From an uncultured Actinomycetes bacterium (GTDB lineage: Bacteria; Actinomycetota; UBA4738; HRBIN12), in assembly GCA_963728665.1 (NCBI GenBank), contig CAVSLG010000018.1, positions 43,762-107,761 of the forward strand: a stretch of DNA of 64,000 nt. The letters run 5' to 3'. The translations under genes were made by a program, and so were the position numbers. Position 1 is the stretch's first letter, and the number at the start of each line of letters is the position of its first letter. Of this stretch, positions 9,092 to 64,000 are shown piece after piece. The notes beneath the pieces are model-generated. The model was not told the origin of the DNA. It was given only the letters and a program-made list of their open reading frames with translations, and did not search any database.

Positions 9092-10150
9092 ATGTTCGAG
9101 GAGCTGATCCGCGGATGGGACGGCGAGCACGTGGTCGTGCGGTTCGACGAGCCGTCGGGAACCTGGATGCTGGTCGGGGTGCATTCCACCGTGCTCGGTC
9201 CGGCGATGGGCGGCACCCGCATGAAGGCGTACCGCTCGCCCGATGAAGGCCTCCACGACGTGCTCCGCCTCTCGCAGGCGATGACGATGAAGCAGGCGGC
9301 CGCCGGTCTCGACTTCGGCGGCGGCAAGGCGGTGCTCGCGGTACCGGCCGTGCCCCCACCCGGCTCGTCGCAACGTCGTGAGCTGCTGCTCCGCTACGGC
9401 GACCTCGTCGAATCGCTGGGTGGCGCGTACGTGACGGCCGCCGACATGAACACCGGTGAGGCCGACCTCGACGTCATCGGCGAGCGCACGATGCACGTGC
9501 TGGGCCGTTCTGTCGTGTGCGGAGGGTCGGGAAGCTCGGCCGGCGCGACGGCCCTGGGAGTGTTCCACGGCATCCGGGCGAGCGTGCGCCAGGCGTTCGG
9601 TGACGAGGGCCTCTCGGGTCGGCATGTGCTCGTGCAGGGGGTAGGAGCCGTCGGGTCGCGCCTCGCAGAGCTCCTGCACGATGCCGGAGCACAGCTGACG
9701 ATCGCCGACCTCGACAACGATCGCGCGACGGCGCTTGCGGCATCGCTCGAGGTCGAGTCGGCGCCAGCGCACCACGTGTTCGACACGGAATGCGACGTGT
9801 TCTCGCCCTGTGCCACCGGTGGTCTGCTCTCGGCCGAGTCGATCCCCTTGCTTCGGTGCCGGGTGGTGGCGGGTGCCGCGAACAACCAGCTCGCCACGTC
9901 GTGGGACGCCGATCGTCTGCACACCCGCGGCATCCTGTACGCGCCCGACTTCGTGATCAACGCTGGCGGCGTGATCCACCTCGTGGGCTACGAACGGCTC
10001 AGTTGGGATGAGGCGCGCATGACGGCCCGGGTCGCCGGCATCGGTCAGACGCTGACCGACCTGTTCCGGCGGGCCGAGGCCGAGGGCATCACGACCGCAG
10101 CAGCCGCGGACCGGCTCGCGACCGAACGCATCGAGGCCGCTCGCGGCTGA
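9092..10150 (+). CDS. Glu/Leu/Phe/Val dehydrogenase family enzyme (leucine/valine dehydrogenase-like)
   Basis: MFEELIRGWDGEHVVVRFDEPSGTWMLVGVHSTVLGPAMGGTRMKAY...AAGLDFGGGKAVL... Rossmann motif VQGVGAVGSRLAELL. The length of about 350 aa fits Leu/Val dehydrogenases. Confidence 0.8.
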   Translation: MFEELIRGWDGEHVVVRFDEPSGTWMLVGVHSTVLGPAMGGTRMKAYRSPDEGLHDVLRLSQAMTMKQAAAGLDFGGGKAVLAVPAVPPPGSSQRRELLLRYGDLVESLGGAYVTAADMNTGEADLDVIGERTMHVLGRSVVCGGSGSSAGATALGVFHGIRASVRQAFGDEGLSGRHVLVQGVGAVGSRLAELLHDAGAQLTIADLDNDRATALAASLEVESAPAHHVFDTECDVFSPCATGGLLSAESIPLLRCRVVAGAANNQLATSWDADRLHTRGILYAPDFVINAGGVIHLVGYERLSWDEARMTARVAGIGQTLTDLFRRAEAEGITTAAAADRLATERIEAARG

Positions 10151-10718
10151 TCGCGCGGTGGGAGAAGGGGTTTCTCCGGGCGTCCGATGCCGAATGGATC
10201 CGGCCGCGCCGACACGTTGCAGACGAGGGGCCTCTCGACCAGGGGTCGCCGCCTCCGGTCGCGGGGCCTCCGCGCGCGCCCGCACCGGAAACGCGATCGA
10301 CATCCGTTCGGCAAACCCCGCGCGGTGTGCAGCGCGGTCAGCGACGCCGGAGGTGCGGGACGGCCGCACGGCCGCACGCCGTCATATCGACGAACAGGAA
10401 CTGGGTCGAGACCCTGGCATCGTCGCTCGATCGCGTCGGGCGAAGGAGGCCGGTCGACTTCACCGCGGTGAGCGCGAGCTCCTCGACCGGTCAACGGCCC
10501 GCATCGGTCCCTGAGGGTTGCATCGGCAGACATGAGGGCCGTAGGGTGATTGATCACGGCTGAGGTGGTGACGGAGGCGGATCCGCGCTCGGGGCAGCAG
10601 TTCGGTGGTAGGCATCGAGCAGGTGACGAAAGAGCACGCCTAGTGGCAACCTGGGGTAGGTGATCCGGAGCTCCGCGTTCGGGATCCTGCGCGAGCCGAG
10701 GTGAAGAAGGGGTAACTC

Positions 10719-13688: not shown

Positions 13689-13755
13689 CCGAGTCTCCGG
13701 GACACGGACGCGACGGGAGCGGGCGACAGTTCTTTCGGGCCGTTCTGAGTCCGTG

Positions 13756-14805
13756 ATGGCGCAGACCCGTTCGCGGCAACCGCTCGATGATGCTGGTCGA
13801 GTCGGCGTTGGAGCCGCTCCTCCTTCACGACCCTCAACGAGTCGGTGGACGCAGCCCGCTGCCTACGCCGCGGCGGTCCTTGTCGTGCTCGCGTTCGTCG
13901 CCGTCTTCTTCCGTGAAGGCGGTCCGCCCGCCGTCCTCATCCCCTCGTCCGGCGCCTACTTCGGAAGCTGGGTCGCTCCCCGTGCCGGTGAGTCTCGCGC
14001 CGATGCGATCGTGCGGGTGGAGTCCCAGATCGGGCGTCGATTCGCGATCGACCATCAGTACTACAAGTGGGACTCGAACTTCCCCGGTGCCCACGAGACC
14101 TGGACGGTCTCCGAGGGGCGGATCCCGTTCATGAACTGGAAGGCGGAGCGGACCAACGGCCAGGTGATCACCTGGAGCAGGATCGCCTCCGGCGCCGAGG
14201 ACGCCGCGATCATCGCGAGGGCCGACGCGATCGAGGCGTTCGGGGTGCCCGTCTACCTCACGTTCCATCACGAGCCCGAGGACGACCTCGCGACCTGGGG
14301 CACCCCCGCCGAGTACGCCGCCGCGTTCCGGCACGTGGTCGACGTCTTCCGCGCACAGGGCGTGGATAACGTCGCGTTCGTCTGGACGATGATGGCCTGG
14401 ACGTTCGATCCTCGCTCGGGCAAGCCGATCGACGACTACTACCCGGGCAACGCCCACGTCGATCTGATCGGCAGCGACGGGTACAACTTCTACCCCGGCA
14501 AGGCCGGCGCCAACTGGGATTCCTTCAAGACCGTGTACCAGCCCACCCAGGACTACGCGGTGCGCCACGGCAAGCCGTGGATGGCCGTGGAGTGGGGAAC
14601 GCAGGAAGACCCGGCGGTCCCGGGTCGCAAGGGCCAGTGGATCGTCGACTCCCTTGCGGTGGCCAAGACCTGGCCCGATCTCAAGGGGCTGATCTACTTC
14701 GACGAGATCAAGGATGGCTATACGTGGATCACCGATAGCTCGGCCTCGTCGACGGCCGGCTTCGCCGAGATCGGGGCCGATGCGTACTTGGATCCTGAGG
14801 GGTAG
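13756..14805 (+). CDS. Secreted or membrane-anchored GH26-like TIM-barrel glycoside hydrolase (beta-mannanase family-like). Standalone copy A of the repeated catalytic cassette.
   Basis: N-terminal hydrophobic anchor AAYAAAVLVVLAFVAVFF. Candidate catalytic glutamates in VYLTFHHEPEDD and PWMAVEWG. About 90% identical at the protein level to the catalytic domains at 33.2, 44.0 and 46.7 kb. Confidence 0.6.
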   Translation: MAQTRSRQPLDDAGRVGVGAAPPSRPSTSRWTQPAAYAAAVLVVLAFVAVFFREGGPPAVLIPSSGAYFGSWVAPRAGESRADAIVRVESQIGRRFAIDHQYYKWDSNFPGAHETWTVSEGRIPFMNWKAERTNGQVITWSRIASGAEDAAIIARADAIEAFGVPVYLTFHHEPEDDLATWGTPAEYAAAFRHVVDVFRAQGVDNVAFVWTMMAWTFDPRSGKPIDDYYPGNAHVDLIGSDGYNFYPGKAGANWDSFKTVYQPTQDYAVRHGKPWMAVEWGTQEDPAVPGRKGQWIVDSLAVAKTWPDLKGLIYFDEIKDGYTWITDSSASSTAGFAEIGADAYLDPEG

Positions 14806-48630: not shown

Positions 48631-48821
48631 ACGCAGCATGCAACGAGCGCTCAAGTACCGAAGGGGTAGCGCATGATCGATGCGCTCAAGTACCGAAGGG
48701 GTAGCGCATGAACGACGCGCTCAAGTACCGAAGGGGTAGCGCATGATCGACGCGCTCAAGTACCGAAGGGGTAGCGCATGAACGACGCGCTCAAGTACCG
48801 AAGGGGTAGCGCATGATCGAT
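48631..48821 (+). repeat. Tandem 35-bp repeat (about 5.5 copies) reiterating the Shine-Dalgarno, ATG and first codons of the downstream gene
   Basis: Unit GCGCTCAAGTACCGAAGGGGTAGCGCATGA(T/A)CGA(T/C). Copies start at 48647, 48682, 48717, 48752 and 48787. The last copy supplies the real ATG at 48813. Each earlier ATG opens a 12-codon mini-ORF M(I/N)DALKYRRGSA whose TGA overlaps the next ATG (ATGA). Confidence 0.9.
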
Positions 48822-50210
48822 GGACCCAGGGTCGCGGTCATCGGCCTCGACTGCGGTGCGCCGAAGCTCCTGTTCGAGGACCTCGCCGACGAGGTGCCGA
48901 ACCTGCGGAAGATCTTCGCCAACGGCATGTACGGCGACCTCGCGAGCATCACGCCGCCGATCACCGTGCCGGCGTGGGCATGCGCGATGACCGGCAAGAC
49001 CCCCGGTCAGCTCGGCATCTACGGCTTCCGCAACCGCAAGGACACGAGCTACGACGGCCTGCAGGTCGCGACGTCGCTCTCGGTGAAGGAGCCGGCCGTC
49101 TGGGACGCGCTCGGGGGCGCCGGCAAGCGTTCCCTGTTGATCGGGGTGCCGCCCGGGTTCCCACCTCCGAAGGAGTTCCCCGGCTGGCGCGTGGCCTGTT
49201 TCCTCACGCCGCCGAGCGCCGATCGCTACGCGTTCCCCGCCGAGCTCGAGACCGAGATCTCAGAAGAGCTGGGCGAGAACGATTACATCTTCGACATCCC
49301 GAACTTCCGCCAGCAGGGCCCCGACTTCGTGATGGACCAGATCTTCAAGATGACGGAGCGGCGGTTCCAGGTGGCGAGGCGCCTGATCAAGAACAAGCCC
49401 TGGGACTTCTTCATGATGGTCGAGATGGGCCTGGACCGGCTGCATCACTGCTTCTGGCAGTTCTACGACCCGCAGCACCCGCTCTACGAGGCCGGCAACA
49501 AGTACGAGACGGCGTTCCACGACTACTACCGCTTCCTCGACCAGCAGGTGGGCACCCTGCTCGAGGTGCTGCCGGAGGACGTCGTCACGATCGCGATGAG
49601 CGACCACGGCGCGCGCCCCATGATGGGGGGCCTCTGCTTCAACGACTGGCTGATCCAAGAGGGGTACCTCGTCCTGAAGGAGCCGGTGCGCGAGATCACA
49701 CCGATCGCGAAGGCCGACATCGACTGGAACCGCACGGTGGCATGGGGCGACGGCGGCTACTACGGGCGCTGCTTCCTGAACATCAAGGGCCGCGAGCCCA
49801 ACGGCATCCTCGAGCCGGCGCAGTACGAGACGCTGCGCAACGAGATGATCGCGAAGCTCGAGGCCCTGCCCGGCCCCGACGGCCGCCCGATGGGCACCAC
49901 GGTGCACAAGCCGCAGGACGTCTACTCCGAGGTCCGCGGCGTGGCGCCCGACCTGATCGTGTACTTCGGCGACCTCGATTGGCGCTCGGTGGGTGCCGTC
50001 GGCAACCCCAGCATCTACACGTTCGAGAACGACACGGGTACCGACGGCGCCAACCACGACCGCACCGCGTTCTTCTCCATGGTCAACCTTCCCGGGCAGG
50101 CGATGGGCCGTGTGGAGGGCATGAACCTGGTCGACGTCGGCCCGTCGATCCTGTCCCTGTACGACATCGAGGCGCCGGCCGGCGCCGTCGGAAGGAGCTT
50201 CCTGCAGTGA
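48813..50210 (+). CDS. Type I phosphodiesterase / nucleotide pyrophosphatase (NPP) family enzyme of the alkaline-phosphatase superfamily. Cytoplasmic, with no signal peptide.
   Basis: VAVIGLDCGAPKLL (metal-site Asp) and PPITVPAWACAMTGKTPGQ, which matches the NPP PTxTxPNHxxxxTG nucleophile-Thr motif. MSDHGARP (HG metal ligands). Intact 465-aa ORF. Confidence 0.8.
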   Translation: MIDGPRVAVIGLDCGAPKLLFEDLADEVPNLRKIFANGMYGDLASITPPITVPAWACAMTGKTPGQLGIYGFRNRKDTSYDGLQVATSLSVKEPAVWDALGGAGKRSLLIGVPPGFPPPKEFPGWRVACFLTPPSADRYAFPAELETEISEELGENDYIFDIPNFRQQGPDFVMDQIFKMTERRFQVARRLIKNKPWDFFMMVEMGLDRLHHCFWQFYDPQHPLYEAGNKYETAFHDYYRFLDQQVGTLLEVLPEDVVTIAMSDHGARPMMGGLCFNDWLIQEGYLVLKEPVREITPIAKADIDWNRTVAWGDGGYYGRCFLNIKGREPNGILEPAQYETLRNEMIAKLEALPGPDGRPMGTTVHKPQDVYSEVRGVAPDLIVYFGDLDWRSVGAVGNPSIYTFENDTGTDGANHDRTAFFSMVNLPGQAMGRVEGMNLVDVGPSILSLYDIEAPAGAVGRSFLQ

Positions 50211-50833
50211 GCGAGCAGCAAGGGTTCACCGTCTGGTTCACGGGCCTCTCGGGATCGGGCAAGTCCACGATCGCCGAGATGCTCTTCCACGAGTTCCAGG
50301 CACGAGGATTCAAGACCGAGATCCTCGACGGCGACGAAGTGCGCAAGAACCTCTCGAAGGGCCTCGGGTTCTCGAAGGAGGATCGCGACACCAACATCCT
50401 GCGCATCGGGTTCGTCGCGAACCTGCTCACCCGCAACGGCGTGGTGACGATCTGCTGCCCCATCAGCCCCTACAAGGAGACGCGCGACGCGTGCCGCGAG
50501 CAGATCGGCGAGTTCGTCGAGGTCTACGTGCACGCGACGGTCGACGAGATCGCCGCGAACCGCGATCCCAAGGGCCTCTACAAGAAGGCGCTGGCGGGCG
50601 AGATCACCGGGTTCACCGGCGTCGACGACCCTTACGAGGTGCCCGTGGATCCGGAGATCACTGTCGACACGCTCTCGCAGACCCCCGAGGAGTCGCTGCA
50701 GCACGTGCTCACCCGGCTGAAGGAGCTCGGTCGTCTCGAGGACGACGACGTGCACGTCACGGGCGACCGGGTGCACTCGGGCCTCACCGACCTGCGTGTC
50801 AGCGAGGCCGGCACGGTCGTCAAGGAGCACTGA
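50207..50833 (+). CDS. cysC: Adenylylsulfate (APS) kinase
   Basis: GTG start overlapping the upstream stop (GTGA). SD gaaggag 10 nt upstream. P-loop VWFTGLSGSGKSTIA. The full length is APS-kinase-like (...DGDEVRKNLSKGLGFSKEDRDTNILRIGFVA...). Confidence 0.9.
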   Translation: MSEQQGFTVWFTGLSGSGKSTIAEMLFHEFQARGFKTEILDGDEVRKNLSKGLGFSKEDRDTNILRIGFVANLLTRNGVVTICCPISPYKETRDACREQIGEFVEVYVHATVDEIAANRDPKGLYKKALAGEITGFTGVDDPYEVPVDPEITVDTLSQTPEESLQHVLTRLKELGRLEDDDVHVTGDRVHSGLTDLRVSEAGTVVKEH

Positions 50834-50834
50834 C

Positions 50835-52253
50835 TCAGGGGTCGGGGACCGCGGCGACCCGCAGCGCGAGCTCGAGGTGCGCCGACAGGAAGTGCGGGGC
50901 GAGGAATCTGCTGCGTACCCGCTGGCGGGCGCCGTGACCGATCTCGACGGCGAGCTGTTCGTCGCGCAGCAGCGTCGAGAGCGCCTCGCCGAACGCGGGC
51001 AGGTCGGTGGGGTCGACGAGCAGGCCGCTCTTGCCGTGCACGATCTGCTCGGCGATGCCGCCGAGCCGTGACCCGACGACCGGGCGCTCCTTCCACATCG
51101 CCTCGGTCACGGTCAGGCCGAACCCCTCGGCAAGGCTCTTCTGCACCACGACGTCGGCGCGTCGCTGCAGCGCGTTCACGACCACCGCGTTCTCGGTGAG
51201 GTCGTGCACGGGAAGGCTCGCGAGATGGGTGCGAGCTCGGTCGTGGGGGAGCAATCCCTGCCACGCCGTGCTCACCTGGGCCAGCACCTCCGCCCCTTCA
51301 GGGTCGTCCGACACCGCGTCGACCTGGGGTCCGGCGAGCACGAGGTGTGCCCCCGTGTCGAGCGGCACCTCGGTCGCGAAGCCCGTCAGCACGCCGATCG
51401 GATCCTTCAGCCGGTCCCACCGCGAGACCTGGACCACGAGTGGGGCCGTGGCGGGCACGGGCGCCTCCTCGAGCATCGTGGCGGCTCGAGCGACACGGAT
51501 CGTGCTCCCGTCGGCGAGCGGCACGGTCGGATCGCCCACGGGCGCCTCGATCACGCCGGCGGCAGCCAGCACGGCCTCGACCGTACGGTTGTCGATCGGC
51601 ACGTTCTTCGGCGCGCTGGCATCGATGCAGGGCGGGATGACCGAGACGCGGGAAGGATCGAGCCCGTCCCATGCGTACACCGGCCGCGTGAACACCGTGG
51701 CGGCGGCGGCTCGCGCGTCGTCGAGCAGGAACGCCCAGGCGTCACGAGCGAGATCGTTCGCGACGTCGATGCCGACGTGGCAGACCCAGATCACGTGCGC
51801 CCCGCGCGACACGAGCTGCGACGTGAGTCCGACGGTCTGGGGGTCGTGCAGCACGACCACGTCGCCCGGTCGCACCAGGGCCTCGATCGGGCCGCGCTCA
51901 CGCTCCAGCGCTGCGTCGTAGACGGCGCGCTGCTCGGGCCCGAGCGGTCCGCCGTCGCCCGCGGCGCCGTGCAGCCGGTTGTGGATGCGCTTGGTGACCT
52001 CGAAGAACGAAGGATCGCCCTCGATCACCATCCACCTCGTATCGACGTCGGCGGACACCACGTACCCGAGCAGGGCGTGCAGCAGCTCGGCGACGCCGCC
52101 GCCCTCGGAGGTGGAGTTCACGTGCCACCACGTTCGTCCGCGGAAGCCCTCTGCGGCATCGGCGAGCGCTCGCTGATAGCGGAGCAGGTCGCCGGGCTCG
52201 ATCAGGTCGGCGAACCCGTCGGGGCGCTGCGGTGCGATCGGAACCTCGTGCAT
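50835..52253 (-). CDS. GT4 family glycosyltransferase (trehalose synthase TreT-like)
   Basis: N-terminal WHVNSTSEGGGVAELL (the NST.FGGGVAE motif of TreT-like enzymes). C-terminal GT-B signature EGFGLTVTEAMWKERPVVGSRLGGIAEQIVHGKSGLLVDP. Intact 473 aa. Confidence 0.75.
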   Translation of the reverse strand: MHEVPIAPQRPDGFADLIEPGDLLRYQRALADAAEGFRGRTWWHVNSTSEGGGVAELLHALLGYVVSADVDTRWMVIEGDPSFFEVTKRIHNRLHGAAGDGGPLGPEQRAVYDAALERERGPIEALVRPGDVVVLHDPQTVGLTSQLVSRGAHVIWVCHVGIDVANDLARDAWAFLLDDARAAAATVFTRPVYAWDGLDPSRVSVIPPCIDASAPKNVPIDNRTVEAVLAAAGVIEAPVGDPTVPLADGSTIRVARAATMLEEAPVPATAPLVVQVSRWDRLKDPIGVLTGFATEVPLDTGAHLVLAGPQVDAVSDDPEGAEVLAQVSTAWQGLLPHDRARTHLASLPVHDLTENAVVVNALQRRADVVVQKSLAEGFGLTVTEAMWKERPVVGSRLGGIAEQIVHGKSGLLVDPTDLPAFGEALSTLLRDEQLAVEIGHGARQRVRSRFLAPHFLSAHLELALRVAAVPDP

Positions 52254-52298
52254 CGGAGCATCATGCCAACCCGGGGCGACGAACGGTGGACCTGCGGG

Positions 52299-53807
52299 AT
52301 GCTCGGAGGGGCTACGCTCGGTGTCGTGGAGGGATTCGACGCGATCGTGTGCGGCGGCGGCACGGCAGGGTCGGTCGTCGCGGCGCACCTCGTCGAGTCG
52401 GGTCGCCGAGTGCTGGTGCTCGAGGCCGGACCCGATCACGGTCCGTTCGCCGACGGCCAGTGGCCACCCGAGCTGCTCGATGCCCGCACGATCCCCCGCT
52501 CGCACGACTGGGGCTACACGTCGGTCGATGAGCTGCCCGGTCGCTCGCTCGACTTCGAGCGAGCGCGGGTGATCGGGGGATGCTCCGCCCACAACGGGTG
52601 CACGGCCTCGTGGGGACACCGCGCGGACTACGACGCCTGGGCATCGCTCGGGCTCGAAGGTTGGGGCGCCGACGACCTGCTGCCGCTGTTCGAGCAGGCT
52701 TCGTCGCAACTGCGAGTGCGGCGGTTCGCCGACGATGAGATCGCGCCGTTCCACCGGGGGTTCATCGAGGCCGGCACGGCGCTGGGATTCCCCGAGGTCG
52801 ACGACCTGGAGTCGCTCGACGGGGGCGTCGGGGTCTGCGCCGAGCCGTCGAATAGCCCCGACGGGGTGCGCTGGAACACCGCGTTCGCCTACCTCGACCC
52901 CGTTCGGGAGCGGCCGGAGCTCACGGTGCGGGGAGACACGGTGGTCGACCGCGTGATCGTCGAGTCGGGACGCGTGGTCGGGGTGGCGGCGCTCGGGCCC
53001 GAGGGGGTCGTCGCGTTCCGCGGTGGCCTCGTCGTGGTGAGCGCCGGCACGTACGGCACACCGGCCGTGCTGCTTCGCAGCGGCATCGGGCCTGCCGAGG
53101 GGCTCAGGGAACGCGGCGTGGCCGTCATCGCGGACCTCCCCGTGGGCCGGAACCTGCACGATCACCCGAGCTTCGAGCTGTCGTTCGCGCCGAGCGACGA
53201 GCTGCGACGCCGGACCGCCGCGTTCGAGGCGACCGGGCGGGTGGTGCCCGACGAGCAGGGCTTCGCGAAGGGCGAGAGCGGCCGTGCCCAGGCGCAGGGT
53301 GAGCCGTTCGACCTGCACGTGTTCCCCGAGATCGCGATGGACGGACGTCTCGGCGTGTTCGTGGCCCTTCTCACCCCGCGCTCGCGCGGAGCGCTGACGC
53401 TCCGCGGTCTCGACCCGGAGGCCGCGCCCAGGCTCGATCACGCCTACCTCGCCGACGCTGAGGGACACGATCTCGAGGCGCTCGTCGACGGCGCGGAGCT
53501 GGCACGGGCGTTCGCCGCCACCGAGCCGTTCGCCTCGCTGCTCGACCGCGAGCTGGAACCCGGGCCGACCGCGCCGGCGCGACACGACCTGCGCGACGCG
53601 GTCCGGGCAGGAGTGATCCACTACTGGCACCCGGTGGGCACGTGCGCGATGGGGACGGTCACCGACGCCGACGGGCACGTGATAGGGGTCGACGGACTCG
53701 TCGTCGCCGATGCCTCGCTCATGCCGATCACCCCCCGGGCGACGACGAACATCCCCACGGTGGTCGTGGCCGAACGGATCGGGCGTGCGCTCGCTCGGGT
53801 GCCCTGA
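52299..53807 (+). CDS. GMC family oxidoreductase (choline dehydrogenase/cholesterol oxidase ChoD-like)
   Basis: FDAIVCGGGTAGSVVAAHL...LVLEAGPD (FAD-binding). GMC signature GGCSAHNGC. C-terminal HPVGTCAMG...VVADASLMP. It sits upstream of guaB3-guaA as in mycobacterial choD-guaB3-guaB2 regions. Confidence 0.8.
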   Translation: MLGGATLGVVEGFDAIVCGGGTAGSVVAAHLVESGRRVLVLEAGPDHGPFADGQWPPELLDARTIPRSHDWGYTSVDELPGRSLDFERARVIGGCSAHNGCTASWGHRADYDAWASLGLEGWGADDLLPLFEQASSQLRVRRFADDEIAPFHRGFIEAGTALGFPEVDDLESLDGGVGVCAEPSNSPDGVRWNTAFAYLDPVRERPELTVRGDTVVDRVIVESGRVVGVAALGPEGVVAFRGGLVVVSAGTYGTPAVLLRSGIGPAEGLRERGVAVIADLPVGRNLHDHPSFELSFAPSDELRRRTAAFEATGRVVPDEQGFAKGESGRAQAQGEPFDLHVFPEIAMDGRLGVFVALLTPRSRGALTLRGLDPEAAPRLDHAYLADAEGHDLEALVDGAELARAFAATEPFASLLDRELEPGPTAPARHDLRDAVRAGVIHYWHPVGTCAMGTVTDADGHVIGVDGLVVADASLMPITPRATTNIPTVVVAERIGRALARVP

Positions 53808-53922
53808 GGGCGTCTGCTACCCTTCCGGCATGTAGGGAGTGACGCCCATCGGGGAACCGGTGGGCGTCCTGCGTTCGTGGGCGGTTCGACAGCTGGCGGC
53901 GAGACCGAGGGTGGGGGAAGAC

Positions 53923-55083
53923 ATGGAATTCGAGATCGGCATCGGCAAGACGGCCCGGCGGGCTTACGGGTTCGACGAGGTCGCGATCGTCCCGTCGCGG
54001 CGCACGAGGGACCCCGAGGACGTGAGCATCGAGTGGGAGATCGACGCGTACACGTTCGGGTTGCCGATGATGGCGAGCGCGATGGACGCCGCCGTGTCCC
54101 CTTCGACCGCGATCGAGATCGGGAAGATCGGCGGCCTCGCGTGCCTGAACCTCGAGGGCCTCTGGACCCGGTTCGAGGACCCCGAGCCTGTCTACGAGGA
54201 GATCGCGTCGCTGCCCGACGAGAAGGCCACGCGGCGTATGCAGGAGCTCTACGCCGAGCCCGTCAAGGAAGAGCTGATCGGCCGTCGCATCGAGGAGATC
54301 AAGGTCGGCGGGGTCACGAGCTGCGCCTCGCTCACCCCCCAGCGGGTCGAGCGCTACGCGAAGCTCGTGCTCGACGCCGGGCTCGACATCCTGGTGATCC
54401 AGGGCACCGTGGTCTCGGGCGAGCACGTCTCGAGCCAGCACGAGCCGCTGAACCTGAAGGAATTCATCCCGGCTTTCGACATCCCGGTGATCGTCGGCGG
54501 CTGCGCGTCGTACTCGACCGCGCTACACCTGATGCGCACCGGCGCCGTGGGCGTGCTCGTAGGCGTCGGTCCCGGCAACGCATGTACTACCCGAGGGGTG
54601 CTGGGTGTCGGAGTGCCGCAAGCGACCGCGATCGCCGACGCCGCCGCGGCGCGTCGCGAGCACCAGCACGAGACCGGGCGGTACTGCCACGTGATCGCCG
54701 ACGGCGGCATGCGCACCGGCGGTGACATCGCGAAGGCGATCGCCTGCGGCGCCGACGCGGTGATGATCGGCTCGCCGATGACGCGCGCGTACGAGGCGCC
54801 GGGACGCGGATTCCATTGGGGCATGGCAACGTTCCACCCGACCCTGCCGCGCGGCGCGCGCGTGAAGACGCAGCAGGTGGCCTCGATCGAGGAGATCCTC
54901 ACCGGGCCCGCGCACGAGAACGACGGCACGTTCAACCTGTTCGGCGCGTTGGCCACGTCGATGGCGACCACCGGCTACCAGACGATCAAGGAGTTCCAGA
55001 AGGCGGAGCTCGTGATCGCCCCCTCGATCAAGACCGAGGGCAAGAGCTACCAGACGCAGCAGGGCGTCGGCATGGGTCACTAG
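53923..55083 (+). CDS. guaB3: IMP dehydrogenase-related protein (GuaB3-type; IMPDH/GMP reductase fold without CBS domains)
   Basis: [34 protein letters not shown]... [27 protein letters not shown]... [30 protein letters not shown]. Confidence 0.8.
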
Positions 55084-55087
55084 CGGC

Positions 55088-56632
55088 GTGCCGGAGCCGC
55101 GGCCGGTCCTCGTCGTCGATCTCGGAGCGCAGTACGCGCAGCTGATCGCTCGCCGCGTGCGCGAGGCGCACGTCTACTCCGAGATCGTGCCACACGACGC
55201 GACGCCCGACGAGATCCGGGCGCTGCGGCCCGCCGGGCTGATCCTCAGCGGGGGACCGGCGTCGGTCTACGCCGAGGGCGCGCCCCAGGTCGACCCGGGG
55301 TTGTTCGAGCTCGGGGTGCCGGTGCTCGGCATCTGCTACGGCCATCAGCTGATGGCCCGGGCGCTCGGCGGCGAGGTGGGCGCGACCGGTCAGCGCGAGT
55401 ACGGGGCTACGTCGCTCGCGCTCGACGAGGGGGGCTCCGGCGTGCTGCTGCAGGACCTGCCGCCCACCGACACCGTGTGGATGTCGCACGGCGACGCCGT
55501 GACGCGGGCGCCCGAGGGATTCCGGGTCACCGCGACCACCGATCAGATCCCGATCGCCGCGATGGAGGACCCGTCGCGCGGCATGTACTCGGTGCAGTTC
55601 CATCCGGAGGTGTCGCACACGACGCACGGACCGGACGTGATGAAGCGCTTCCTGTACGACGGGTGCGACCTGCTTCCCGACTGGACGCCGACGAACATCA
55701 TCGACGATCAGGTCGCGCGCATCCGGGCCCAGGTGGGTGACGCGCAGGTGTTGTGCGCGCTGAGTGGAGGCGTCGACTCCGCGGTCGCGGCGTTGCTCGT
55801 GCATCGAGCGATCGGGGATCAGCTCACCTGCGTCTTCGTCGACCACGGCTTGAACCGCGAGGGGGAGCCCGACCAGGTCGAGGAGACGTTCGCCAGGCAC
55901 TTCCGGGTGCCACTCGTGCACGTGAAGGCGGCGGACCGGTTCCTCGGGCGGCTGGCCGGCGTCGTCGACCCCGAAGTGAAGCGCAAGACGATCGGCGAGG
56001 AGTTCATCCGGGTCTTCGAGGAGGTCGCGCGGGACCAAGCCGATGCCGGGTTCCTCGTGCAGGGGACGCTGTACCCCGACGTGATCGAGTCGGGGTCGAA
56101 GACCGCCGCGAACATCAAGAGCCACCACAACGTGGGTGGGCTGCCCGAGGACATGACGTTCGAGCTCGTCGAGCCGCTTCGCGACCTGTTCAAGGACGAG
56201 GTGCGCACGGTCGGTGCCGAGCTCGGACTGCCCGAGGAGATCGTGCAGCGCCAGCCGTTCCCGGGTCCCGGGCTCGCGGTGCGCATCGTGGGCGAGGTCA
56301 ACGCCGAGAACCTCGCGAAGGTGCGCGGGGCCGACGCCGTCGTGCGCGAGGAGATCAAGCGGGCTGGACTCGACCGGGAGACGTGGCAGGCGTTCTGCGT
56401 GCTGCTCGCCGATGTGCAGAGCGTGGGCGTGATGGGCGACGGCCGCACGTACGAGAACCCGGTGATCGTGCGAGCCGTGACGAGCGAGGATGCCATGACG
56501 GCCGATTGGGCGCGCCTGCCCGACGACGTGCTCGACCGCATCGCGTCGCGCATCGTGCGAGAGGTGCCCGGTGTGAACCGGGTGGCGTACGACATCACCT
56601 CGAAGCCGCCCGGCACGATCGAGTGGGAGTAA
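55088..56632 (+). CDS. guaA: GMP synthase (glutamine-hydrolyzing)
   Basis: GATase1 domain ([14 protein letters not shown]). PP-loop SGGVDSAV. C-terminal dimerization domain ...[19 protein letters not shown]. Intact 514 aa. Confidence 0.95.
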
Positions 56633-57735: not shown

Positions 57736-60042
57736 GTGAACGCCGTCTCCCCCCTGCTCGAGGGCCTGAACGACATCCAGACCGAGGCGGTCCTGCACAC
57801 CGAGGGACCGGTCCTGATCGTGGCCGGCGCCGGCAGCGGTAAGACCCGGGCGCTCACCCACCGCATCGCCTACCTGATCCGGGAGCGGGGTGTCTCACCG
57901 TTCGAGATCCTCGCGATCACGTTCACGAACAAGGCGGCCCGCGAGATGGCCGAGCGGGTCGAGGGCATGCTCGGGGAGCGGGTCACCCGTGGCATGTGGA
58001 TCCTCACGTTCCACTCGACGTGCGCTCGCCTGCTCCGGCGCGAGCACACTCACCTCGGCGTGCCGAGCGGATTCACGATCTACGACGACGGCGACACCGA
58101 GCGCCTGATCGCCGGCATCCTGAAGGATCTCGACCTCGATCCGAAGCGCTTCCCGCCGAAGGCGATGGCGAGCGCGATCTCGAGCGCGAAGGACCGGGTG
58201 ATCGGTCCCGACGACTTCGCGAGCATGGCGAGCAACTTCTACGAGGAGACGATCGCGAAGGTCTATCACGCGTACGAGCGGCGCAAGCGTGATGCCGGCG
58301 CTCTCGACTTCGACGACCTGATCACCGAGACCGTACGGCTGTTCCGCGAGCATCCCGAGGTGCTCGAGCACTACCAGGAGCGGTTCCCGTACCTCATGGT
58401 CGACGAGTACCAGGACACGAACCGCGCGCAGTACGAGCTCGTGAACCTGCTCGCCGCGAAGCACCGCAACGTGTGCGTCGTCGGCGACGCCGACCAGGGT
58501 GTGTACAGCTGGCGCGGCGCCACGATCCAGAACATGCTCGACTTCGAGCGCGACTACCCCGATGCGACCGTCTTCCTCATGGAGCAGAACTACCGCTCGA
58601 CCCAGAACATCCTGGAAGCGGCGAACGCGCTGATCGAGCACAACCAGCAGCGCAAGCCGAAGGCGTTGTGGACCGAGGCGGGCTCGGGCGAGTTGATCGT
58701 TCGGTTACGCGCCGACGACGAGCACGAGGAAGCGTTCTTCGTGGTCGACGAGATCGAGCGGTTACGCGAGACCGAGGGCTTCCGGCTCTCCGACGTGGCG
58801 ATCTTCTACCGCACCAACGCGCAGAGCCGAGTGCTCGAGGACGTGCTGATGCGTGTGGGCACGAACTACCGGGTCTTCGGCGGGGTGCGGTTCTACCAGC
58901 GCCGGGAGATCAAGGACGTGCTCGCGTACCTGCGCCTGCTGATCAACCCGCAGGACGTGATCTCGTTCCGGCGCGTCGTGAACACCCCGAAGCGTGGCAT
59001 CGGCGACGCCACGGTCGCGGCGCTCGAGTCCTTCGCCGACACCGAGGTCATCGACGTGGTCGAGGCGTGCCGGCGCATCGACGAGATCGCGGTGCTGCAG
59101 ACGCGGGCGAAGGGGGCCGTCGCGGGCTTCAACACGGTGATGGAGGCGATCCGGCGTCATCACGACGACGGCGCCGGGCCGGCACGCATGGTCGAGTTCG
59201 CCGCGATCGAGTCGGGCTACCTCGCCGAGCTCGAGGAGGAGCGCACGGTCGACGCGCAGGGGCGCATCGAGAACATCCAGGAGCTGGGAGGGGTGGCCGC
59301 CGAGCTGCTCACCCGTGAGCCCGACGCCGGTCTCGAGCAGTTCCTCGAGCAGGTGTCGCTGATCGGGGAGCAGGACGAGTACGACGAGGACGCCTCGAGC
59401 GTGACCCTGATGACCCTGCACATCGCGAAGGGGCTCGAGTTCCCGGTCGTGTTCATCGTAGGCATGGAGGACGGCATCTTCCCCCACTTCCGCTCGATGA
59501 CCGACGCCGCAGCCCTCGAGGAAGAGCGTCGCCTGGCGTACGTGGGCATCACGCGCGCGCAACAGCGCCTGTACCTCACGCACGCGTGGAGCCGCACGAT
59601 CTACGGGCAGACGCAGTACAACCCGCCCTCACGCTTCCTCGGGGAGGTGCCGGAGCATCTGTTCGACGTGCGCGAGAGCGAGGGAGCCGCGACCGGGTAC
59701 GGAGGGCGGTACACGGGTGGCCGCCAGGCTGGACGAGGCTCCGGAGCCGCCGGGTATCCGGGAGCGGGCCGCGGCGGCGGCCGTGTGATCGGCGGACGCC
59801 GCGAGCACGACGACGACGACCGCCCGCCGCAGGACTGGACGCCGCCGCAGCCCAAGAGCGTCCCGATGCGCGAGGCGCCGGTGATCGCGGCCGGCGACAC
59901 GGTCGTGCACGAGCGCTGGGGCGAGGGGGTCGTGCTCGCGGTGAGCGGCGCGGGCGACGGCACCGAGGCCACGATCTCCTTCCCCGAGGTCGGGGAGAAG
60001 CGGGTGCTGCTCGCCTACGCCCCCCTCAGGAAGGCGGGGTAG
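57736..60042 (+). CDS. pcrA: ATP-dependent DNA helicase PcrA/UvrD family
   Basis: GTG start. Walker A AGAGSGKTRALTHRIAYL. Helicase motifs TFTNKAAREM, VDEYQDTNRAQY, TLMTLHIAKGLEFPVVFIVGMEDG, YVGITRA. Intact 768 aa. Confidence 0.9.
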   Translation: MNAVSPLLEGLNDIQTEAVLHTEGPVLIVAGAGSGKTRALTHRIAYLIRERGVSPFEILAITFTNKAAREMAERVEGMLGERVTRGMWILTFHSTCARLLRREHTHLGVPSGFTIYDDGDTERLIAGILKDLDLDPKRFPPKAMASAISSAKDRVIGPDDFASMASNFYEETIAKVYHAYERRKRDAGALDFDDLITETVRLFREHPEVLEHYQERFPYLMVDEYQDTNRAQYELVNLLAAKHRNVCVVGDADQGVYSWRGATIQNMLDFERDYPDATVFLMEQNYRSTQNILEAANALIEHNQQRKPKALWTEAGSGELIVRLRADDEHEEAFFVVDEIERLRETEGFRLSDVAIFYRTNAQSRVLEDVLMRVGTNYRVFGGVRFYQRREIKDVLAYLRLLINPQDVISFRRVVNTPKRGIGDATVAALESFADTEVIDVVEACRRIDEIAVLQTRAKGAVAGFNTVMEAIRRHHDDGAGPARMVEFAAIESGYLAELEEERTVDAQGRIENIQELGGVAAELLTREPDAGLEQFLEQVSLIGEQDEYDEDASSVTLMTLHIAKGLEFPVVFIVGMEDGIFPHFRSMTDAAALEEERRLAYVGITRAQQRLYLTHAWSRTIYGQTQYNPPSRFLGEVPEHLFDVRESEGAATGYGGRYTGGRQAGRGSGAAGYPGAGRGGGRVIGGRREHDDDDRPPQDWTPPQPKSVPMREAPVIAAGDTVVHERWGEGVVLAVSGAGDGTEATISFPEVGEKRVLLAYAPLRKAG

Positions 60043-60045
60043 CGC

Positions 60046-63000
60046 TCAAGGGCAGGGTTCGACGTGGAGATACTGGCGGCACTCCTCGTCGGAGAGTTGC
60101 CTCGTCACCTTCGTGCCGGCGATCGCGATCAGCTCGTCGAGATCGAGCTCCCAGACGCGGACGAGGCCGTCCGGCGCGGCCGATGCGAGCCGCCGTCCGT
60201 CGGGGCTGAACGCGATGCCCGAGACGAGGTACGTGTGGCCCCGCAGGACCAGTTGCTGGATCCCCTGCTCCGGGTTGAACAGTCGGACGGTGGCGTCCAT
60301 GCCGGAGGTCGCGATCCGCCCGCCGTCCGGGCTGTAGGTGATGTTCTCGATGCTTCCGGAGTGCGCGGGGAACCGGAGCACGCGCTCGAGGCCGGGCACG
60401 GAGAAGATCTCGACGATGCCATCGAAGCGCGCCACGGCGAGCTCCGACCCCGTGGGATCGAACGCCACGCCCGTCGCCCCGATCGGCTCGATCGAGCCCT
60501 CGATCGCCTCGCCTTCCCAGTCCCAGATCGACACGTGGTTCTGTTGCGGCTTGGCGATGACCGACACGGCGGTCGCGATCCTGCTCCCGTCAGGGCTGAA
60601 CGTGACATCGTCGATCTGCCTCCAGCTGCCCTCCTCGACCAACCTTGCCACCTGCTCTCCCGTCGCATCGAGCACGGTCGTGCTCCCATCCCATGTCCCG
60701 ACGACCAGGTGCTCGCCGTCGGGGCTCCAGTCGGCGGCCGAGATCTCCTCCCCGATGGGTACCTCGAACACGGCGTCCCCCGTTCCGACATCCCACGCGG
60801 TGATCGTGTCGCTGAAGAGGCGAACGGTCGCGATGCGCGATCCGTCGGGACTCACCTCGATCAGCCAGACGGCCCGAGGGGATCCTGCGCCGGGACCGAT
60901 CGTCGCAGCCTCACCCTCGCGCACGTCCCATAAGGTGACGGATCCCTCGTCGCTCGGTGCGACGATCCGTCCGTCCGGCAGGTACGCGACATCGACGGGA
61001 GCCAGCTCGTCGGTGGGCAGGTTCGCCACCTCGGCATCGCCGTCGATGGTCACGTCCCAGATCTTGACCGCAGTGATCGCCGTATCGCCGGTCAGGACCC
61101 CGTTGCCGTTGGGAGAAAACGCGGCGAACGTGCCCGACCTCGTCTGCTGCGCCGAGAGCGTCAGCACCTCGCGGCCCACCGCGTCGTCGATCTCCCACAC
61201 CCTGGCGGTCCCGTCGCTGCCTCCGGTCACGAGCCGTTTCGAGTCGCGTGCCCAGTCCACCGTCACCACGACACCGGTGTGACCGACGAGCTCCGTCTCC
61301 AACCGCTCGGTCGCTGCCTCCCACACGCGTATCGACGAGTCGTTGGCCCCGGTCGCGATCCACCGACCGTCCGGGCTCCACGAGACGGAGTTGATCGTAT
61401 AACTGTGCCCCCGGAGGTCGAACGCGCGCTCGCCGGTGGCGACGTCGAAGACGGCTCCGACAGGGGTGTTGCCCATCCCGACCGCGACGTGCTCGCCATC
61501 TGGGCTCAGGGCGGTGTCGAAGGGATTGTCGGGCAAGGAGATCGTGCGAACGATCTCGCCGGTCGACGGATCGACGATGCGGGTCTTCCTCTCGGATATC
61601 CATGCCGCCGCGAGGAGCGATCCGTCGGCGTCGAAGGACTGCCCGAGCACCGGTCCCTCCCCCTGGATCACTGACACCTGGTCGCCGGTTGCCGGATCCC
61701 AGATGCGGAGAGCGCCGTCGTCACCTCCCGTCGCGAGGAGTGATCCGTCGGGCGAGAAGCGGACGTCGTTGACGTCGGGGTCGTGGCCCTCCCACGACCG
61801 GACGATCTCGCCGGTCGATGCGTCCCTGAGCTCGATCATGCGGCTGTCCTCGGGGCCTTCGGTGACGAACACGCCCTCAGGGCTCCAATCGAGGTTGCCG
61901 CCGGCGCCCGACGCCGTGAGCACGATGCGGGAAGCGGTCACGGCACTGTGCAGAGCTTCTTCCGCCTCGGGGAGGACCGTGCCGTCGACCGACCGCGTTC
62001 GATCGATGGATTCGAGCGCGAGGAGGATGCTGCGCTCGGGATCGACCTCGAGACTGGCGACGGACGCCGCCGCGAGCTCGCGAGCCTGCGCGGTCAGCTC
62101 CTGGTCCTGGGCCTTCCGCTGCTGGCTCATCGCGAAGAGCGTCAGGGCGCCGGCCACGACCGCTGCGACCGTCAGCACGGCGACGATCGTGCGCAGCCGG
62201 CGCACCGACCGTCGTTCGAGCTCCCGTTCGTGGTCCTGGCGCGTTCGCTCCTCGACCTGCACCCGGTCCCGCTCGGCGGCGGCCGCGTCGAGGAACGCGC
62301 TCTCCTCGGGGGTGAGCGCCAGCGGCGACCCGCCACGCCACGCCTCGATCTGCTCGAGGCGCGATCCCGAGATCAGGAACGACGGATCGCGGTCGGCGTC
62401 GGCCCAATCGCGCGCCGCCGCAGCGAGCCGTCGCTCGGTGCGTATGTCCTCCCGCGCGGCGTCGATCCATCGTCCGAGCCGTCGCCACGCGGAGAGCATC
62501 GCCTCGTGCGCCAGCTCGATCGTCGGTTCGCCCGTGCGGACATCGCGGTCGAACGTGAGCTGGCGCGAGGTTCCATAGGTCTCGATCACCCACGACATCG
62601 CCTGCTGGTCGAGGTCGAGCGAGGTGATCTCGGCTCGCGACACCCGTCGACGCGTGTCCTCCGTGCCTTCGCCGAGCGCCACCAGGTGCAGGAACAGCTG
62701 TCGCGCCGCGTCCTTCCCGGCCGCGTCGAGCCCGTCGTAGATCTCCTCCGCCCGGCGACCGAGCGCGCCCGAGACCCTGCCGATCTCCCGATAGGAGCCG
62801 AGCGTGATCATGCGACCATCCCGCCGCTCGAACAGCTCGGTCAGCGCGTACTCGAGCAGGGGGAGCGCGCCCGGTTCCTCGGCGACGTCGGCAAGCATCG
62901 CGGCCACGAGCCCGGTCTCCAGGGAGACGTCGGCCCGTTCGGCCGGCTTCGTGATCACCTGCTCGAGCTGCTCGGCCGAGAGCGGGACCAGCGACTCGAC

Positions 63001-64000
63001 GCGCGCCGCGAAGAGGTCCGCGAATCCGCGGTAACGAAGGGGCCGATCGTAGAAGTCCGCTCGCAGCGTGACGATCACCCGTAGGCGGCTGTGGGGATCG
63101 CTCACCGCGGCCTCGAGGCTACCGAGGAAGTGCCGGCGGGCATCCTCGTCGTCAACGAGGGTGAAGACCTCCTCGAACTGGTCGATCACGAGCACGAGCT
63201 CGGAGCGGTCGGACGGCAGGACCCGGAGCACGGCTCGGTGGAGCCCGCGCTCATCGGATCGGAGCTGCTCGATCAGGCTCGGTGGTGGGTCCATGGCGAC
63301 CTTCAGCAACGCCGCCTCGAGCCCGTCGAGCGGGTACGGGCCCGGGAACATGTCGGCGATCGGCCAGGTATCAGATCCGGCGATCGCGCCACGACGCAGG
63401 GCCGGGATCAACCCTGCGCGGACGACCGACGACTTCCCGCTGCCGCTCGGTCCGACGAGCGCGAGGAACCGCGTCTGCGACAGGCGATCGACGAGCTGCT
63501 CGATCAGGTCGTTGCGTCCGTGGAAGTCGGGGGCGTCGCCCTCCTCGAACGCGCGCAAGCCCTTGTAGGGGTTCGCCACGATCGCGCCCGGGCCGGCTGG
63601 TTGGAGCCGGGTCCCCGACGCGCCCAGCGCCCGCCGGAAGGCGACGTCCTCGGCCGCGTCGTCGGCTTCCGCCTTCAGTCGCATCACGTGGACCGGGTGA
63701 GCGATCCCCTTGAGCTGCACCGTACCCCGATCGACGGACGCGACGCCGTCCACCTTGCGGGCCAGATGCACGACCTCGCGGCTGGCGAGGATCTCCCCGG
63801 GTCCCGCGATCGCGCACAGGCGCGCGCCGAGGTTGAGGGCGCCCCCCCGATAGCCCCCCTCGACGGAGACCGCTTCGCCGGCGTCGAGACCGATGCCCAC
63901 CGGAAAGGGAAGCGATGGATCGGCGACGGTCTCCTCCACGAACCGGCGCTGCAGGTCGATCGCCGAACGGATCGCCTGCCGGGTCGACGTGAAGACGCAG
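60046..64000 (-). CDS. Adenylyl/guanylyl cyclase domain - STAND (NACHT/NB-ARC-like) NTPase - single TM helix - WD40 beta-propeller protein. The 5' end extends beyond the window.
   Basis: C-terminal half of a class III cyclase domain (FPVGIGLDAGEAVSVEGGYRGGALNLGARLCAIAGPGEILAS). Walker A LALVGPSGSGKSSVVRAGL and Walker B LVLVIDQFEEVF. TM RLRTIVAVLTVAAVVAGALTLFAM flanked by R-rich N-side. At least 10 WD40 repeats (ALRIWD, SIRVWEA, ARVWE, VRVWE...). 1297-aa intact ORF to 63939; the upstream part probably lies beyond 64000. Confidence 0.8.
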   Translation of the reverse strand, partial: CVFTSTRQAIRSAIDLQRRFVEETVADPSLPFPVGIGLDAGEAVSVEGGYRGGALNLGARLCAIAGPGEILASREVVHLARKVDGVASVDRGTVQLKGIAHPVHVMRLKAEADDAAEDVAFRRALGASGTRLQPAGPGAIVANPYKGLRAFEEGDAPDFHGRNDLIEQLVDRLSQTRFLALVGPSGSGKSSVVRAGLIPALRRGAIAGSDTWPIADMFPGPYPLDGLEAALLKVAMDPPPSLIEQLRSDERGLHRAVLRVLPSDRSELVLVIDQFEEVFTLVDDEDARRHFLGSLEAAVSDPHSRLRVIVTLRADFYDRPLRYRGFADLFAARVESLVPLSAEQLEQVITKPAERADVSLETGLVAAMLADVAEEPGALPLLEYALTELFERRDGRMITLGSYREIGRVSGALGRRAEEIYDGLDAAGKDAARQLFLHLVALGEGTEDTRRRVSRAEITSLDLDQQAMSWVIETYGTSRQLTFDRDVRTGEPTIELAHEAMLSAWRRLGRWIDAAREDIRTERRLAAAARDWADADRDPSFLISGSRLEQIEAWRGGSPLALTPEESAFLDAAAAERDRVQVEERTRQDHERELERRSVRRLRTIVAVLTVAAVVAGALTLFAMSQQRKAQDQELTAQARELAAASVASLEVDPERSILLALESIDRTRSVDGTVLPEAEEALHSAVTASRIVLTASGAGGNLDWSPEGVFVTEGPEDSRMIELRDASTGEIVRSWEGHDPDVNDVRFSPDGSLLATGGDDGALRIWDPATGDQVSVIQGEGPVLGQSFDADGSLLAAAWISERKTRIVDPSTGEIVRTISLPDNPFDTALSPDGEHVAVGMGNTPVGAVFDVATGERAFDLRGHSYTINSVSWSPDGRWIATGANDSSIRVWEAATERLETELVGHTGVVVTVDWARDSKRLVTGGSDGTARVWEIDDAVGREVLTLSAQQTRSGTFAAFSPNGNGVLTGDTAITAVKIWDVTIDGDAEVANLPTDELAPVDVAYLPDGRIVAPSDEGSVTLWDVREGEAATIGPGAGSPRAVWLIEVSPDGSRIATVRLFSDTITAWDVGTGDAVFEVPIGEEISAADWSPDGEHLVVGTWDGSTTVLDATGEQVARLVEEGSWRQIDDVTFSPDGSRIATAVSVIAKPQQNHVSIWDWEGEAIEGSIEPIGATGVAFDPTGSELAVARFDGIVEIFSVPGLERVLRFPAHSGSIENITYSPDGGRIATSGMDATVRLFNPEQGIQQLVLRGHTYLVSGIAFSPDGRRLASAAPDGLVRVWELDLDELIAIAGTKVTRQLSDEECRQYLHVEPCP

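Follow-up and report, generated by a model that had tools for sequence, protein, structure and literature searches.

A putative membrane-spanning STAND protein with a class III cyclase domain and predicted extracytoplasmic WD40 propellers, from an uncultured actinomycete

We analyzed a stretch of 64,000 nucleotides (here called the window) from contig CAVSLG010000018.1 of an uncultured Actinomycetes bacterium (assembly GCA_963728665.1, positions 43,762 to 107,761) and, within it, the gene on the minus strand at 60046 to 64000, which encodes part of a nucleotide cyclase domain, a STAND nucleoside triphosphatase (NTPase), a hydrophobic helix, and a long WD40 repeat region. On the basis of sequence comparisons, the protein is very probably anchored in the membrane in the N-in/C-out orientation, with the cyclase and the NTPase inside the cell and the propellers outside; with less assurance, we consider it likely to be a single-pass cyclase-STAND receptor that is driven by a ligand binding to its outside propellers. 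Within its family, which is uncharacterized, the gene is nothing out of the ordinary, and the membrane-spanning topology appears to be the rule for a huge clade of related proteins.

Membrane topology

The gene corresponds to a minus-strand open reading frame (ORF; 60046 to 63999) of 1317 codons, followed by a stop codon (60046 to 60048). Since this frame stays open up to the window edge without an in-frame stop, the gene is cut at its 5' end. The P-loop, at residue 183 of the visible protein, is residue 256 in full-length relatives, placing the missing N terminus at about 73 residues (about 220 nucleotides beyond 64000); the GTG at 63939 given in the ORF list is merely the first internal start-like codon. 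We infer a complete, single-pass, N-in/C-out membrane receptor of about 1390 residues, close to the 1401 amino acids (aa) of P0121, a full-length cluster representative. The order of parts put forward in the original prediction (the C-terminal half of a cyclase, a P-loop NTPase, a transmembrane helix, and WD40 repeats) was recovered by translation, Pfam, hydrophobicity, and, for the cyclase, comparison with relatives.

The sole strong hydrophobic segment of the visible protein is aa 604 to 625 (62125 to 62190, on the minus strand, like all features of this gene), TIVAVLTVAAVVAGALTLFAMS, a run of 22 apolar residues that is predicted to form a single transmembrane helix. Its Kyte-Doolittle 19-residue mean is 2.56 (runner-up segment, 1.27), and its summed Hessa-type transfer free energy is -1.68 kcal/mol (next segment, +7.9). 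In 98 homologs, the apolar stretch comprises 20 to 25 uninterrupted residues with a Kyte-Doolittle value of about 2.5, and it is conserved as hydrophobicity, not as exact sequence. Whatever the N-terminal output, its position about 420 residues past the P-loop is kept at 80 of the 81 genome loci, in 133 of the 137 cluster representatives (50% identity), and in nearly all long-enough homologs among the 120 listed. AlphaFold2, run on aa 585 to 1317 (predicted local distance difference test score, 92.5; predicted template-modeling score, 0.81), confidently placed the apolar segment within a single continuous helix of about 63 residues (aa 586 to 648), a lone element that is not packed into a domain.

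The two sides of this helix differ in charge. Averaged over the same 98 homologs, the 8 residues on the N-terminal side contain 4.6 Lys plus Arg and 0.03 Asp plus Glu, compared with 2.0 and 1.29, respectively, on the C-terminal side; with 15-residue flanks, the Lys-plus-Arg means are 5.85 and 3.44, and the N-terminal side is the richer one in 92 of the 98. In our protein, the NTPase is followed by a predicted cytoplasmic linker (aa 540 to 603, 62191 to 62382) ending in LERRSVRRLR (of which ERRSVRRLR, aa 595 to 603, lies at 62191 to 62217), so that RRSVRRLR immediately precedes the hydrophobic segment. The motif, L-E-R-R-S-x-(R/N)-R-L-R, is conserved among 298 family members. Hydrophobicity, conserved position, and motif together thus bear out the earlier claim of a single transmembrane helix with the Arg-rich N-terminal flank RRSVRRLR. 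Beyond the membrane, the helix is predicted to continue as an outside stalk up to aa 648, followed by two juxtamembrane helices (aa 654 to 672 and 677 to 689; stalk and helices together, 61933 to 62124), a region that is conserved in homologs, including the variants with solute-binding domains described below, and in which Pfam gave just a subthreshold TarH match that was not used.

As an observation in its own right, the LERRSx(R/N)RLR motif, with its arginine pairs just ahead of the hydrophobic segment, is far more conserved than a positive-inside flank requires. It might be an internal signal anchor of the twin-arginine translocation (Tat) type, exporting prefolded propellers, or a docking or signaling element. 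Compared with the Tat consensus (S/T-R-R-x-F-L-K), the arginine pairs are present, the fit is poor, and the signal would be internal.

A second line of evidence for the orientation comes from domain fusions. ABC-type binding proteins function outside the cytoplasmic membrane, and a pairing of the NTPase domain, nSTAND1, with such a domain (SBP_bac_1, PF01547) was found in at least 9 clusters. In one example, P0106, the order is kinase, nSTAND1, helix, juxtamembrane helices, Cys cap (see below), and SBP_bac_1 (E = 6.5e-16), and the closest free-standing relatives of this type of SBP_bac_1 domain are ordinary ABC-transporter substrate-binding proteins. The possibility that P0106 is a chimeric assembly was rejected because the architecture recurs in those clusters. 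Similarly, a Peripla_BP_4 domain (E = 7.8e-28) lies C-terminal to the propellers in a Chloroflexota homolog (L059). In the variants with a solute-binding domain in place of WD40 repeats, the cap follows only about 35 residues past the juxtamembrane helices; with these two elements adjacent in P0106, the propellers of other members look as if they were inserted into one small helical domain, which suggests that juxtamembrane helices and cap form a single unit.

The N-out orientation was rejected, since full-length relatives have no N-terminal signal sequence and the N-terminal domains need nucleotides.

WD40 propellers and C-terminal cap

The region past the membrane helix matched PF00400 (WD40) with an E value of 7e-65, and many WD40 and beta-propeller models of Pfam hit between aa ~700 and ~1300. 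Counting SPDG-type motifs gave 14 blades, which we assign to two seven-bladed propellers, at aa ~692 to 995 (61015 to 61926) and aa ~996 to 1285 (60145 to 61014), the boundary between them being approximate. After the long helix, the AlphaFold2 model consists of two short helices, a continuous all-beta repeat region of the WD40 type, and two C-terminal helices; the more than 600 residues of WD40 repeats that had been predicted are therefore well founded in the PF00400 match, the blade count, and the model. Foldseek matched the model to generic double-propeller proteins, uninformative on cellular location, and the best superposition of the propeller pair was with Apaf-1 (TM-score, 0.57). NCBIfam yielded subthreshold propeller matches only (TolB and hydrazine synthase among them), none of them meaningful. 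The predicted ectodomain is acidic, with a computed isoelectric point of 4.3 and a net charge of -63.

The protein closes with a helical cap (aa 1286 to 1317, 60049 to 60144), delimited by comparison with homologs and containing the conserved motif LSDEECRQYLHVEPCP. This cap holds Cys1307 (60079 to 60081) and Cys1316 (60052 to 60054), the sole cysteines C-terminal to the membrane helix. Most family members likewise have exactly two cysteines in the approximately 700-residue part after the helix, both in the cap, and the motif, L-T/S-x-E-E-C-x-Q-Y-L-x4-5-C in Actinomycetota and L-T-C-x-E-R-E-x-Y-x-x-x-P-L-C in Chloroflexota, forms the end of nearly all members; in the latter phylum, the first cysteine comes a few residues earlier (LTCAEREQYRVEPLC) and the pair is retained. 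Even numbers of cysteines past the helix outnumber odd ones by 95 to 14 among the representatives and by 49 to 10 among the genome loci. A conserved cysteine pair and a bias toward even numbers are what is expected of disulfide-bonded exported proteins, and the cap is probably stapled by a disulfide.

Helix conservation, charge bias, the cysteine pair and parity, and the solute-binding fusions all support the proposal, made originally from the positive-inside rule, that the cyclase and NTPase are cytoplasmic and the WD40 region lies outside. As for the accompanying statement that this topology is unusual for STAND proteins, it agrees with the literature that we searched and fails within this clade, where the topology is the norm.

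Some Chloroflexota members have a much larger ectodomain. Four of them (L043, L066, L067, and L070) reach 1300 to 1500 residues in this part and have far more WD40 repeats; in L066, the one that was scanned, at least 13 PF00400 units were clear. In three of the four (L066, L067, and L070), the C terminus is instead a tail with cysteines of another kind, CxISAGTCEFAVTEE.

NTPase and cyclase domains

Residues 144 to 539 (62383 to 63570) form an nSTAND1 domain (Pfam PF20703), matched with an E value of 9.3e-119 and 397.9 bits (cutoff, 27.1) over profile positions 1 to 378 of 379. Its Walker A motif, GPSGSGKSS (aa 183 to 191, 63427 to 63453), and Walker B motif, LVLVIDQFEE (aa 268 to 277, 63169 to 63198), are intact, including the acidic residues, and the P-loop NTPase that had been called from these two motifs is thereby confirmed as a full-length domain. 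The nSTAND1 clade owes its name to a 2021 eLife paper on predicted counter-invader systems by Kaur, Iyer, Burroughs, and Aravind (PMC8195603), and some nSTAND1 proteins are predicted to be cytoplasmic (PMC10907252).

Upstream of the NTPase, and separated from it by a linker without a Pfam family match (aa 110 to 143, 63571 to 63672), lies the C-terminal half of a class III nucleotide cyclase domain (aa 1 to 109, 63673 to 63999). Taken alone, this fragment of 109 residues had no match to Pfam PF00211. The relatives P0009 (92% identical), P0001 (94%), and P0002 (75%) extend upstream into a complete class III cyclase domain, and a phmmer search of PDB with the N terminus of P0002 retrieved the solved class III cyclases Ma1120 (E = 2.6e-14), Rv1900c, Rv1264, and Cya2 of Synechocystis (PDB 2w01; E = 6e-6). 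Against PF00211 itself, the N termini of the relatives are borderline (22.6 bits for P0002 and 14.3 for P0008; cutoff, 21.9).

Residue roles were mapped by alignment to Ma1120, together with the mutational study of that enzyme (PMC4215837). The window opens directly after the GDGA(L/M) metal-binding strand, and both metal-binding Asp residues, which lie upstream of the window, are present in P0009 and P0001 (in FADIRGYT and ELQGDG); the window itself shows the transition-state Asn and Arg, within NLGAR (aa 56 to 60, 63820 to 63834). At the substrate-specifying positions, the adenylyl-type pair of Lys and Asp is not present: a Gly, visible here within VEGGYRGG (63841 to 63864), occupies the Asp position, and close relatives have Glu at the Lys position. 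Glu with a small residue is the pattern of guanylyl cyclases (GC), one of which, the bacterial Cya2, has precisely Glu-Gly; in Ma1120, the change K101E/D157G increases GC activity (PMC4215837). With the metal-binding pair in its relatives, Asn and Arg in the window, and a Cya2-like Glu-Gly pair, the domain looks catalytically competent. The Glu and Gly residues lean toward GTP or dual specificity over the classical ATP, so that the product may be cyclic GMP (cGMP) or a mixture; a Tyr that raises GC activity in Cya2 is replaced here by Ala (position A167 of Ma1120), which leaves the specificity unreadable from sequence. Of the "adenylyl cyclase" named in the original prediction, the class III cyclase domain therefore stands, on the full-length relatives and PDB matches, and the adenylyl-specific residues do not.

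Distribution and output domains of the family

With aa 144 to 700 as the query, a full HMMER scan covering 1.84 billion cluster representatives retrieved 50,751 proteins with E values of ≤1e-3 and 19,424 with E values of ≤1e-30, the 150th best match still having an E value of 1e-149. A species-level genome scan yielded 462 relatives, of which the best 80 all came from uncultured Actinomycetota, Acidimicrobiia, Chloroflexota (mostly Anaerolineae), and Dormibacterota. At the 71 loci with complete N termini, the outputs were protein kinase (62), LuxR-type helix-turn-helix (HTH; 15), BTAD (8), class III cyclase (7), HTH_3 (6), and Trans_reg_C (5), counts that overlap because some domains are combined in one protein. 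The cyclase is thus a minority output (7/71) and the kinase the usual one (62/71). What these proteins appear to have in common is a chassis made up of the NTPase, the basic motif, the helix with the juxtamembrane helices after it, a sensor outside the membrane (usually a pair of WD40 propellers), and the Cys cap.

Genomic neighborhood

The gene converges on a PcrA/UvrD helicase gene (57736 to 60042), the end of whose stop codon (60042) lies 3 nucleotides from its own (60046 to 60048). Past the helicase follow guaA (GMP synthase), a gene resembling that for inosine monophosphate dehydrogenase (IMPDH; both in the region of 53839 to 56632), and a GMC oxidoreductase gene, and the order pcrA, guaA, IMPDH-like gene, and GMC oxidoreductase gene is retained in L001, the contig of a relative with 94% identity. 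The presence of guanine-nucleotide synthesis genes beside a cyclase that possibly uses GTP is probably coincidental synteny. L001 abounds in frameshifts; on it (10001 to 14120), the orthologous gene is split by them just past the membrane helix, and the helicase gene and guaA are fragmented too, which points to an error-prone assembly rather than to real pseudogenes; we used L001 solely for synteny and for the N terminus. Another class III cyclase gene, standing on its own and with an alpha/beta-hydrolase gene after it, lies on this contig at 2299 to 4403, some 6 to 8 kb upstream of the ortholog; the pairing is known, in fused form, from mycobacterial LipJ/Rv1900c, and the corresponding stretch of our genome falls beyond the window.

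Farther from the gene, two very long overlapping ORFs on opposite strands (50835 to 53807) turned out to be overextended when compared with Pfam, which located a GT4/TreT-like glycosyltransferase at about 50918 to 52124 (minus strand) and the GMC oxidoreductase at about 52335 to 53772 (plus strand); in this DNA of 70% G+C, ORF length is no evidence of a gene. Likewise, two plus-strand ORFs overlapping in different frames (48813 to 50833) contain a type I phosphodiesterase/nucleotide pyrophosphatase domain (about 48831 to 50045) and an adenosine 5'-phosphosulfate kinase domain (about 50219 to 50668) and are probably two adjacent genes with overcalled starts.

Proposed mechanism and alternative explanations

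How might such a protein work? We propose that a ligand outside the cell, which is probably of large size or multivalent (an envelope polymer or a protein, for example), would be captured by the acidic propeller ectodomain. Its binding would alter the packing or clustering of the membrane helices, and the signal would pass through the continuous helix, allowing nucleotide exchange and oligomerization of the STAND modules, for which a nucleotide-dependent switch is assumed. Oligomerization would in turn draw the cyclase domains together. Class III cyclases have their active sites at the dimer interface and are active only as dimers, so this step would switch on the synthesis of a cyclic nucleoside monophosphate (cNMP). 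The same chassis would serve other proximity-activated outputs, chiefly Ser/Thr kinases; kinases and regulators of the LuxR type or of the Streptomyces antibiotic regulatory protein (SARP) type are likewise activated by proximity, which fits the interchange of outputs. The function as a ligand-sensing switch is itself our deduction from this architecture.

Several points weigh against this reading. Classical STAND proteins are autoinhibited through direct action of the sensor on the NTPase, a mode of control that cannot apply where the sensor lies across the membrane from it; the signaling step that we propose instead is without precedent and constitutes the main mechanistic gap. We know of no extracytoplasmic canonical WD40 domain, and the solved structures that resemble the propeller pair in Foldseek, Apaf-1 included, are all cytoplasmic or nuclear. 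The topology tests were computed ones, consisting of hydrophobicity and charge counts and comparison of homologs. Cysteines are rare in the cytoplasmic part as well, and the parity counts, being drawn from related homologs, lack independence. Folds of the Peripla_BP type are also found in LacI-type repressors, which are cytoplasmic. Finally, the cyclase domain is divergent and borderline in Pfam, its first half lies outside the window, and its activity is predicted from relatives.

Among the alternatives, we first considered an NLR-like immune or conflict system, in which the propellers would recognize a component of a phage or competitor, maybe at the surface, the STAND module would oligomerize, and the cyclase would make an alarm nucleotide for a toxic effector encoded elsewhere. 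The definition of nSTAND1 in predicted counter-invader systems (PMC8195603), the recurrence of cNMP cyclases as effector-side domains in such systems (PMC7159879), and the occurrence of WD40 sensors among defense STANDs (PMC13581612) are all in line with this idea. However, PADLOC gave just two short P-loop matches in the protein (E = 3.8e-4 and 3e-3), which we took as noise, and the neighbors are the housekeeping set described above, in an order retained in a relative. Neither a partner effector gene nor any other defense-like gene was visible on the downstream side (the upstream side lies beyond the window), and the N-terminal modules that take the place of the cyclase elsewhere in the family are kinases and DNA-binding regulators, none of them a nuclease, protease, or TIR domain. 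A role in immunity is, in our view, unlikely.

Doubtful to a similar degree is the alternative that the topology is as proposed and the cyclase-like domain does not work as an enzyme, serving as a dimerization or nucleotide-binding module while the NTPase alone signals or acts as a scaffold. Inactive cyclase domains have been reported in other multidomain bacterial systems (PMC7159879), and the low PF00211 scores (14.3 to 22.6 bits, around the cutoff of 21.9), the unmatched visible half, and the replacement of the ATP-specifying Lys and Asp by Glu and Gly would be in keeping with such a loss. Against it, the metal-binding Asp pair, Asn, and Arg are all found in relatives 92 to 94% identical to our protein, with Asn and Arg visible in the window, and the replacing residues are the very pair of the active enzyme Cya2, introduced with a gain in GC activity into Ma1120 (PMC4215837).

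That the hydrophobic helix does not span the membrane (being buried, reentrant, or involved in oligomerization) and that the protein is a wholly cytoplasmic, Apaf-1-like STAND, whose propellers detect a ligand inside the cell and exert direct autoinhibition on the NTPase, is highly improbable: although the closest solved propeller-pair folds, such as Apaf-1 with its TM-score of 0.57, are cytoplasmic and all characterized STAND sensors are intracellular (PMC13581612), this reading is contradicted by the uninterrupted apolar stretch in 98 homologs, by the conservation of hydrophobicity rather than sequence next to a strongly basic flank on one side, by the C-terminal fusion of ABC-type solute-binding domains in a recurrent subfamily, by the conserved cysteine pair and the even-number bias, and by the lone, unpacked helix of the AlphaFold2 model.

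Relation to known signaling proteins

The N-in/C-out cyclase-STAND receptor favored here was compared with described systems. Published nSTAND1 proteins have the same NTPase domain and the same three-part layout, with the output at the N terminus, the NTPase in the middle, and repeats at the C terminus; here, by contrast, a membrane helix parts the NTPase from the repeats, the outputs are signaling domains, and the gene sits in a housekeeping context. Apaf-1 and other AP-ATPase STANDs also place two WD40 propellers after a STAND NTPase and activate their output by oligomerization, as proposed for our protein. Yet Apaf-1 is soluble, with propellers that touch the NTPase and bind cytochrome c in the cytosol, and its NTPase belongs to the NB-ARC clade, whereas the propellers studied here are predicted to lie across the membrane from an NTPase of the nSTAND1 clade.

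Closer in function are three other groups. The Rv0386-type regulators of mycobacteria (cyclase, ATPase, and LuxR-type HTH), which are also Actinomycetota proteins, share an N-terminal class III cyclase with noncanonical substrate residues and a STAND-type ATPase; unlike our protein, they are, to our knowledge, cytoplasmic, with helical repeats and a DNA-binding domain and without membrane helix or WD40 repeats. PknD, an actinobacterial receptor Ser/Thr kinase, is likewise an N-in/C-out single-pass protein, with its catalytic output in the cytoplasm and a beta-propeller sensor beyond the membrane, differing in having no STAND NTPase and one six-bladed NHL propeller instead of two WD40 propellers. 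Receptor-type cyclases, such as the trypanosomal adenylyl cyclase GRESAG4 and the receptor guanylyl cyclases of animals, resemble our protein in being single-pass proteins with a ligand domain outside and a dimerizing cyclase inside; they are N-out, with a C-terminal cyclase, no NTPase switch between membrane and cyclase, and outside domains other than WD40. In the PDB search, GRESAG4 (PDB 1fx2) was itself a weak match to the cyclase N terminus. These three groups are the nearest functional analogues, and the three elements that they represent are united in none of them. In the literature that we searched, the coverage of which is limited so that absence is not proven, neither a membrane-spanning STAND nor an extracytoplasmic WD40 domain has been described in bacteria, and none of the passages retrieved from a systematic survey of prokaryotic WD40 proteins (PMC5587647) was relevant to membrane topology.

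More tentatively, as a possibility for which we would claim somewhat less than probability, these proteins may represent an unrecognized class of bacterial receptors, in which a STAND switch of the NLR type is driven from outside by WD40 or solute-binding domains through a continuous helix, nucleotide-dependent oligomerization, and a proximity-dependent output (cyclase, kinase, or transcription factor). STAND and NLR proteins are assumed to be intracellular, with repeats that touch and inhibit the NTPase; in this protein and in about 19,000 sequence clusters of Actinomycetota, Chloroflexota, and relatives, the repeats are predicted to lie across the membrane, a placement under which the accepted model of activation cannot apply unchanged. 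If the proposal is true, the surface-receptor and intracellular NLR arms, which are separate in plants and animals, would be merged here in one polypeptide, and the propellers would be the first canonical WD40 propellers found to work outside the cytoplasm. The family would then form a large group of outside-in receptors, so far unexplored, in the monoderm bacteria of soil and sediment and would bring with it a new mode of control for class III cyclases, kinases, and SARP/LuxR regulators, for which the cyclase variant would offer an easy readout of the mechanism in the form of cyclic AMP or cGMP.

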